Shown here in pieces: positions 61 through 114 of a DNA stretch of 224 nucleotides. This DNA is from Escherichia coli (GTDB lineage: Bacteria > Pseudomonadota > Gammaproteobacteria > Enterobacterales > Enterobacteriaceae). The stretch is from the NCBI RefSeq assembly GCF_003334355.1, contig NZ_QOWP01000120.1; one strand, given 5' to 3'. Made by a program: the position numbers and the translations under genes. Position 1 is the first letter of the stretch. The number at the start of each line of letters is the position of its first letter. Below the pieces are notes generated by a model that saw nothing but the letters and a program-made list of their open reading frames with translations, had not been told where the DNA came from and ran no database searches.

Positions 61-75
61 GATTTTTAAAGAGCA
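61..75 (-). promoter_or_regulatory. Spacer boxA antitermination element (binding site for the NusB/NusE-containing rrn antitermination complex)
   Basis: Minus-strand sequence TGCTCTTTAAAAATC (+ strand gatttttaaagagca) contains the boxA core GCTCTTTAA, close to the rrn leader boxA TGCTCTTTAACAA. It sits immediately 3' of a hairpin in the transcript, the boxB-then-boxA order described for rrn leader and spacer regions. Confidence 0.7.
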
Positions 76-76
76 A

Positions 77-114
77 ATATCTCAAACATCACCCGAAGAT
101 GAGTTTTGAGATAT
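77..114 (-). promoter_or_regulatory. boxB-like stem-loop with UUCG tetraloop, upstream of spacer boxA in the transcript
   Basis: Minus-sense RNA AUAUCUCAAA-AC-UCAUC-UUCG-GGUGA-UG-UUUGAGAUAU. Outer stem is 10 perfect bp (77-86 with 105-114). Inner stem is 5 bp including one G-U wobble that pairs only in minus-sense RNA (it would be a C/A mismatch in plus sense). The stem closes a C(UUCG)G tetraloop (+ strand cgaa at 94-97). Confidence 0.6.

Follow-up and report, generated by a model that had tools for sequence, protein, structure and literature searches.

Results

An rrn 16S–23S spacer with tRNA-Glu

The window, the whole stretch of 224 nt that was analysed, is the 16S–23S spacer of an E. coli rrn operon. 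A tRNA-Glu gene (anticodon UUC), the tRNA that rrn operons of this type carry in their spacer, occupies positions 149–224 on the minus strand. It was found by ARAGORN and by Rfam (tRNA, 60.1 bits) and is annotated in an identical E. coli locus, L001. The remaining positions, 148–1, are spacer, and the window has no coding content. E. coli chromosomes match the whole 224-nt window at 100% identity, and the window was matched in 5,425 of 5,426 complete E. coli genomes, with a median of 7 places per genome. L001 comes from E. coli O157:H7 PV15-279, where the operon that carries the identical copy, between its 16S and 23S rRNA genes, is flanked by clpB and kgtP. This is the rrnG position, as borne out by the annotation of MG1655, in which clpB adjoins rrsG. 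Because tRNA-Glu and the flanking 16S and 23S genes are all on the minus strand, the minus strand of the window is the sense strand and represents the transcript. The annotated 23S start is approximately 45 nt past the end of the window. The element described below sits in the tRNA-Glu-to-23S part of the spacer, about 120 nt upstream of 23S.

A search of the window against Rfam at permissive thresholds found no family for a hairpin–boxA module, and only tRNA and StyR-44 scored above threshold. The weak matches (SNORD24, SpF36 and others) were set aside as chance. A scan of the window for terminators and promoters returned 0 sites.

Hairpin and boxA core

A preliminary description of this DNA had proposed that a long hairpin in the minus-sense transcript of positions 61–114 is followed within 2 nt by a boxA-like motif. 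Folding confirmed the hairpin: the minimum free energy of 61–114 was -15.0 kcal/mol (RNAfold; z = -4.9), and none of 200 shuffled sequences was as stable. The hairpin, the ‘boxB’ of the spacer, could be extended from 114–77 to 115–76 on the minus strand, giving 40 nt, and with 5 more nucleotides the minimum free energy was -16.3 kcal/mol (RNAfold; z = -5.2). Its sequence from 115 to 76 is AAUAUCUCAAA-AC-UCAUC-UUCG-GGUGA-UG-UUUGAGAUAUU. The outer stem of 11 bp pairs 115–105 with 86–76, and the inner stem of 5 bp pairs 102–98 with 93–89 and contains one wobble, U99·G92. The loop is UUCG at 97–94, forming a C(UUCG)G tetraloop. A repeat finder independently gave identical arms. The plus strand of the inverted repeat also folds, more weakly (-11.5 kcal/mol), because it has an A·C mismatch in place of the wobble and no UUCG loop. 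The hairpin begins 33 nt downstream of tRNA-Glu. Between the two lies a weaker predicted stem-loop, GGUU-GUGA...UCGC-GACC, at 118–142 on the minus strand; the rrnC/E copies differ in this region (GTCACCTGCC versus GTCGCCGACC).

The spacer boxA core, UGCUCUUUAA in the transcript, is at positions 66–75 on the minus strand. TGCTCTTTAA at 75–66 is an exact match to the rrn boxA core and the single match in the window, and none of 200 shuffled windows contained it, even with 1 mismatch allowed. The published boxA consensus is UGCUCUUUA (PMC6614797), and this consensus is present on the transcribed strand of the rrn spacer. The preliminary description had drawn the motif as 15 nt, TGCTCTTTAAAAATC at 75–61, which starts 0–1 nt after the hairpin stem and so agrees with the proposed distance. 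The core was single-stranded in every fold of the window. In the 5,425 of 5,426 E. coli genomes with a match, boxA was found at about 7 places per genome.

Comparison with the leader and with the other rrn operons

In the 8.2-kb operon, TGCTCTTTAA (1 mismatch allowed) occurs exactly twice, both times on the sense strand: once in the window and once in the leader, 144 nt upstream of 16S. The leader copy belongs to the nut-like element boxB–boxA–boxC downstream of promoter P2, and the two elements have the same order, with a hairpin, 0–3 nt and then boxA, and share the core on the same strand of the same operon. In the leader the hairpin is followed by AC, TGCTCTTTAACAA and, 14 nt later, the GU-rich boxC TGTGTGGG; in the spacer it is followed by TGCTCTTTAAAAA. 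The first 10 nt of the two boxA copies are identical, and 12 of the 13 nt of TGCTCTTTAACAA match. The sole difference is at position 11, which is C in the leader and A in the spacer and lies outside the 8–9 nt recognised core. The spacer hairpin is longer than that of the leader (40 nt, UUCG loop) and is unrelated in sequence.

With A at position 11, the ACA triplet of the leader is absent from the spacer. A MazF cleavage site, ACA, has been reported inside leader boxA (PMC12541390), and leader boxA of L001 (2231–2243), UUUAACAAU, contains ACA. Spacer boxA lacks ACA and reads UUUAAAAAU in Escherichia, Enterobacter, Klebsiella, Superficieibacter and Rosenbergiella, and AACAAU is kept in spacer boxA of Photorhabdus, Xenorhabdus, Tatumella, Mixta, Edwardsiella, Symbiopectobacterium and Serratia. 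As a side possibility, spacer boxA of Escherichia, Enterobacter and Klebsiella may have lost the ACA of the leader, which might provide a MazF-resistant second loading site.

We compared all seven rrn operons of MG1655. boxA was invariant in all seven spacers, and the stretch from two bases 5′ of boxA to window position 1 was nearly invariant in the 7 copies. The spacer hairpin occurred in three versions. Those of rrnB, rrnC and rrnE are the same as in the window; in rrnG the inner stem is replaced (AGACU/AGUCU, closed by the loop GUUA) and the outer stem contains a C·U mismatch; and rrnA, rrnD and rrnH, which carry Ile/Ala spacers, have an unrelated sequence. Each of the three forms a hairpin (-10.8 to -16.3 kcal/mol, z -3.1 to -5.2) that stops 0–3 nt short of boxA, while loop and stem sequences vary between operon copies (the other loops are GUUA and GCAA). 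The leaders of MG1655 showed the same arrangement: boxA and everything downstream were invariant, and two to three hairpin versions were present, ending 2–3 nt before boxA. The pattern is an invariant linear motif together with a hairpin that is variable in sequence and constant in position.

Compared with MG1655, the window departs from rrnC/E at 123–120 and from rrnB at a single base around position 25. At the rrnG position, the operon of O157:H7 has the rrnB/C/E-type hairpin, and rrnG of MG1655 (L003) has another inner stem. The spacers have a mosaic appearance, which gene conversion among operons would be expected to produce.

Conservation of sequence and structure in Enterobacterales

For comparison across species, one genome per species was scanned with two anchors, the tRNA T-arm GGTTCGAATCC and the 23S 5′ region ACGGTGGATGCC, at a distance of 200–230 nt. 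The scan demanded neither boxA nor a hairpin, and it gave 64 loci. The Enterobacterales among them were Enterobacter, Klebsiella, Escherichia, Superficieibacter, Rosenbergiella, Tatumella, Mixta, Photorhabdus, Xenorhabdus, Edwardsiella, Symbiopectobacterium and Serratia symbiotica, and every one of their loci had boxA at the same place with 0–1 mismatches to the 10-nt core. The variants were TGCTCTTTAA[A/C]AATC, AGCTCTTTAACAATC in three Photorhabdus species and TACTCTTTAACAATC in S. symbiotica. In Actinobacillus the site carries 1 mismatch, TGTTCTTTAAAAAAT, and lies 45–50 nt nearer to the tRNA. Together with the match to the leader core over 10 nt and the invariance among the seven MG1655 spacers, this bears out the expectation that the core is kept across spacer copies.

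Some loci deserve separate mention. In the endosymbiont S. symbiotica (L033), the A of TACTCTTTAACAATC replaces G2, a position described as critical for NusB binding, and the upstream hairpin is intact and strong (-24 kcal/mol). One contig from an ‘Oxalobacter sp.’ metagenome-assembled genome (L066) has a tRNA-to-23S spacer hairpin and boxA identical to those of E. coli; it is probably an Enterobacteriaceae contig that was mis-binned. In Photorhabdus asymbiotica and P. bodei (L018, L061) the 23S distance between the 5′ and 3′ anchors is about 3,020 nt, compared with about 2,905–2,911 nt in the other genera, which suggests that their 23S genes carry an intervening sequence of about 110 nt.

Among the segments upstream of boxA 22 were distinct, and each of them folds into a hairpin whose end coincides with or adjoins boxA; that of Actinobacillus is short (7 bp). 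Covariation was analysed in an alignment of 22 sequences from 13 genera, consisting of the window, MG1655 rrnG and 20 Enterobacterales, without Actinobacillus. RNAalifold predicted the same 14 hairpin pairs as were specified by hand. In these 22 sequences 96.8% of the cells were paired, compared with 29–43% when the 3′ partner was slid by 1–3 columns, and 9 of the 14 pairs had compensatory changes on both sides. None of 500 shuffles reached the observed values for pairing, double changes or covariation. The predicted hairpin is thus backed by covariation. The alignment contained 15 G·U cells and 1 A·C cell, and this imbalance points to RNA-level selection on the minus strand. In the preliminary description, the G-U wobble of the inner stem was taken to confirm the functional strand. 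The strand was right, yet a single G-U in one sequence is weak proof; it is the gene orientation and the ratio of 15 G·U to 1 A·C that fix it. These comparisons show the hairpin to be selected for structure and boxA for sequence.

The same scan reached distant phyla, where a looser boxA-like motif was present in 17 of 27 intervals and in 0.4% of shuffled intervals. Examples are TGCTCTTTGACAA, CGTTCTTTAACAA and GGCACTTTAAAAA; many of the intervals have a stem-loop shortly upstream of the motif, at a varying distance. The regular expression for this loose motif was written after the data had been seen, and these matches are therefore indicative only.

A stable hairpin with a U-rich tract right behind it (UUUGCUCUUU, 5 U in 8 nt) could in principle be an intrinsic terminator or a pause site that attenuates transcription into 23S. 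We regard this as highly unlikely and rejected the intrinsic terminator. The terminator scan found none in the window; the base of the stem is A-U rich, with an invariant UAU/AUA across genera, unlike the G+C-rich base of intrinsic terminators; and the U-tract is broken by GC. Moreover, the tract is the conserved boxA, and a terminator between 16S and 23S would unbalance rRNA stoichiometry.

Predicted pairing of the strand 3′ of boxA with the 23S trailer

Co-folding with the trailer of 23S in L001 predicted that AAUCUGGAUCAAGCUGAAAAU, at 44–64 on the minus strand, supplies the 5′ side of the pre-23S leader–trailer helix in its outermost part. The intermolecular helix ran from window position 64 to the 23S 5′ end, the partner of 44–64 in the trailer was L001 7164–7226, and the boxA core was unpaired. 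The strand that pairs with the trailer is conserved, and boxA precedes it by 1–3 nt. A homologous trailer block, …TTTCAGCTTGT·T··AGATT…, was found by MAFFT sequence alignment and then trimmed by hand, and was aligned in 14 operons from 8 genera. The post-boxA segment paired with this block in all 14 constructs. Overall, 86.4% of the cells were paired, compared with 26–46% in slid controls; the rows of Enterobacter cloacae and Klebsiella michiganensis are off by one base, which lowers the paired percentage. One pair covaried, being A-U, U-A or U-G at columns 22/62. Because there is only one covarying pair, the trailer helix is counted as consistent with the data rather than proven. The data are consistent with a conserved helix, mostly through conservation of sequence.

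This prediction bears on the extent of the motif. The core at 75–66 stood as described, whereas the last four nucleotides of the 15-nt motif, AATC at 64–61, appear to belong to the trailer helix and not to the core recognised by NusB/E. If the helix is real, boxA would lie at the foot of the pre-23S leader–trailer helix in the same way as leader boxA, which likewise precedes the 5′ strand of an rRNA leader–trailer helix, precedes the 16S helix.

Since the sequence directly 3′ of the core pairs with the trailer, boxA could be conserved solely as a strand of the 23S processing helix and not as a protein-binding site. We consider this very improbable. Neither the co-fold nor any of the 14 constructs paired the core UGCUCUUUAA, apart from that of Tatumella, in which the last core bases (UUUAA) were paired. 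The same core is present in the leader, where the pairing partner differs, and its sequence is the experimentally defined ligand of NusB/E (PMC6614797; PMC3177189; PMC2800207).

boxC and StyR-44

No clear GU-rich boxC follows the spacer boxA, unlike the leader; between boxA and 23S there are only GTTGTT and GGGTTGTG, the latter adjoining the 23S start. boxC is not required for antitermination. Some reviews give the spacer element a boxC too, and SuhB binding to leader RNA depended on the boxA–boxC region (PMC6614801). Given this dependence and the lack of a boxC-like GU run in the spacer, the spacer complex may assemble differently.

The Rfam family StyR-44 (RF01830) matched positions 1–71 on the minus strand with 81.5 bits (gathering score 54), and the match is cut by the end of the window. 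It starts inside boxA (CUUUAAAAAUC...), which it overlaps in part, and runs toward the 23S 5′ end; it begins 3′ of the hairpin and leaves the hairpin outside. The model is 107 nt long, and a full-length copy would therefore end a few nucleotides before the annotated 23S start. This end is near the expected RNase III cut, which suggests that the ‘sRNA’ is an excised fragment of the pre-23S leader. In the paper describing it, StyR-44 is a species of 109 nt, located upstream of 23S in each of the seven operons and ‘processed from longer precursors’; it is possibly a metastable intermediate of maturation, which the authors could not exclude (PMC2943607). An independent sRNA gene was accordingly rejected as the primary reading of this DNA. 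StyR-44 is a by-product of the same transcript and not the boxB–boxA signal. A sister species, StyR-215, is located 123 nt upstream of 16S, near leader boxA.

Within the pre-23S leader, a small hairpin, GAACAAC-GAAA-GUUGUUC, was predicted at 17–34 on the minus strand, and it is part of the Rfam consensus structure of StyR-44. As judged by eye, other genera have different inverted repeats at this place (ACACAC...GTGTGT in Enterobacter, ATAATA...TATTAT in Photorhabdus). It looks like a second hairpin that is conserved in structure and variable in sequence.

These fragments bring up another account of the boxB hairpin, in which it is a determinant of processing or stability unrelated to boxA, for example in tRNA-Glu 3′ maturation or in protection of a spacer fragment, and the two are adjacent by accident. 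tRNA-Glu is 33 nt upstream, spacer fragments such as StyR-44 are detectable (PMC2943607), and the structure is under selection, yet rrn boxB is without an established role in antitermination (PMC6614797; PMC10250234). However, in the Ile/Ala spacers, with another tRNA and another hairpin sequence, the hairpin still ends 2–3 nt before boxA; the same layout of hairpin and then boxA recurs in the leader, where there is no tRNA; and StyR-44 leaves the hairpin out. We therefore think this account improbable.

Discussion

Our comparison indicates that the element is very probably the nut-like boxB–boxA of the E. coli rrn 16S–23S spacer, a loading site of NusB/NusE for the rRNA antitermination complex. 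The proposal that this module is the rrn spacer antitermination signal is supported by the 100% identity of the window to an rrn spacer, by the match to leader boxA and by the literature. The sequence-level features of an rrn nut-like element were found at the locus, namely the consensus, the location, a hairpin on the 5′ side and conservation, with the exception of boxC. The element is not new: accounts of the spacer boxB–boxA go back to the 1980s, and experiments have been done on it. In E. coli rrn operons boxB and boxA are present in both the leader and the spacer, in an order that is the reverse of lambda nut (PMC6614797; PMC10250234; PMC8632103; PMC6614801), and the leader and spacer elements nucleate the antitermination complex (PMC8632103; PMC6614801). 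Identity, location and conservation come from the sequences compared here; the binding of proteins, the composition of the complex and the effect on 23S synthesis are taken from published work.

NusB–NusE binds boxA specifically, with a Kd of 5–8 nM for leader boxA of rrnG (PMC2800207). NusB/E recognise an 8-nt core in which G2, C5 and U6 are critical (PMC3177189). The spacer core is the same as the leader core at every recognised position, and from this the binding of NusB–NusE to spacer boxA can be safely inferred. The complex, rrnTAC, consists of boxA-bound NusB–NusE with NusA, NusG, SuhB and S4; it resists Rho, cuts pausing and speeds elongation (PMC6614797; PMC10250234; PMC6614801). It has also been reported to boost co-transcriptional cleavage by RNase III. 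Pfeiffer and Hartmann (1997), as cited, found that mutation of spacer boxA lowers rRNA synthesis (PMC6614797; PMC4807359). Read-through of Rho-dependent terminators and efficient synthesis of 23S are credited to the element in citations of Berg et al. (1989) and Pfeiffer and Hartmann (1997) (PMC6614797; PMC4807359). The standard interpretation, supported at second hand by the cited mutations of spacer boxA, is that the Nus complex would be reloaded at the spacer before 23S.

The lambda nutL and nutR sites (boxA–spacer–boxB) likewise combine a linear boxA bound by NusB–NusE with a stem-loop and nucleate a processive antitermination complex that includes NusA and NusG (PMC6614797; PMC8632103; PMC6614801). 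The order of lambda nut is reversed relative to the rrn spacer, and rrn boxA binds NusB:NusE about 10-fold more tightly than nut boxA (PMC2800207). Lambda boxB is a short hairpin with a GNRA-like fold that is bound by the arginine-rich motif of the N protein. E. coli has no N protein, and SuhB and S4 replace it. The spacer hairpin, which varies in sequence, is not a lambda-type boxB with a short stem and a GNRA-like, purine-rich pentaloop; it has UUCG on an interrupted 16-bp stem. The hairpin is a boxB by position only.

During transcription, the NusB–NusE(S10) heterodimer would bind the single-stranded boxA core UGCUCUUUA, and the modified polymerase would resist Rho-dependent termination and pause less. 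If the polymerase keeps hold of boxA, the 5′ flank of pre-23S would stay near the RNA exit channel, and because it is held there it would be able to pair with the 23S trailer approximately 2.9 kb later, forming the helix for RNase III processing. In the delivery model, the complex holds the nut-like RNA and presents 5′ regions to 3′ regions that emerge later (PMC6614801). The position of boxA just 5′ of the trailer-complementary strand fits what this model expects.

It is also to be asked which output dominates. The element may be mainly a tether for RNA folding, in which boxA-bound NusB/E loops out 23S and presents the 5′ flank for RNase III, and antitermination would be secondary. This concerns the physiological output of the element and not its identity, and we regard it as a serious possibility, if somewhat short of an even one. 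boxA lies 1–3 nt 5′ of the conserved strand that pairs with the trailer, and Singh et al. hold that at rRNA the complex serves chiefly in folding and processing and that antitermination is not the major function (PMC4807359). On the other hand, classical reporter and in vitro data, as cited, give boxA segments antitermination activity (PMC4807359), the long-range helix has one covarying pair only, and the two outputs are not mutually exclusive. The main output, read-through or folding and processing, is debated, and the position of boxA beside the leader–trailer strand fits folding and processing at least as well. The read-through of the operon named in the preliminary description is thus only one proposed output of the element (PMC4807359).

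Deletions of leader boxB had little phenotype (PMC10250234), and boxB is reported as not required for antitermination (PMC6614797). For this reason, the role proposed here for the hairpin is unproven. What speaks for such a role is a structure that is strongly kept although the sequence is not: 9 of its 14 pairs covary, three unrelated versions are present in one genome, and the hairpin is always 0–3 nt 5′ of boxA. Usually called dispensable or puzzling, the rrn boxB hairpin may possibly, although we think it rather unlikely, contribute to the loading of Nus factors next to boxA as a working component of the site and dock on NusB–NusE.

Our study carries little weight as a discovery, and it indicates that a real regulatory RNA signal can be recognised from raw sequence alone. 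The spacer boxB–boxA element gives a clean comparative demonstration of a hairpin under selection for structure beside a boxA under selection for sequence. Its place at the predicted foot of the pre-23S leader–trailer helix fits looping or ‘delivery’ models of co-transcriptional rRNA processing, and the element touches the question of the purpose of the rrn boxB hairpin.
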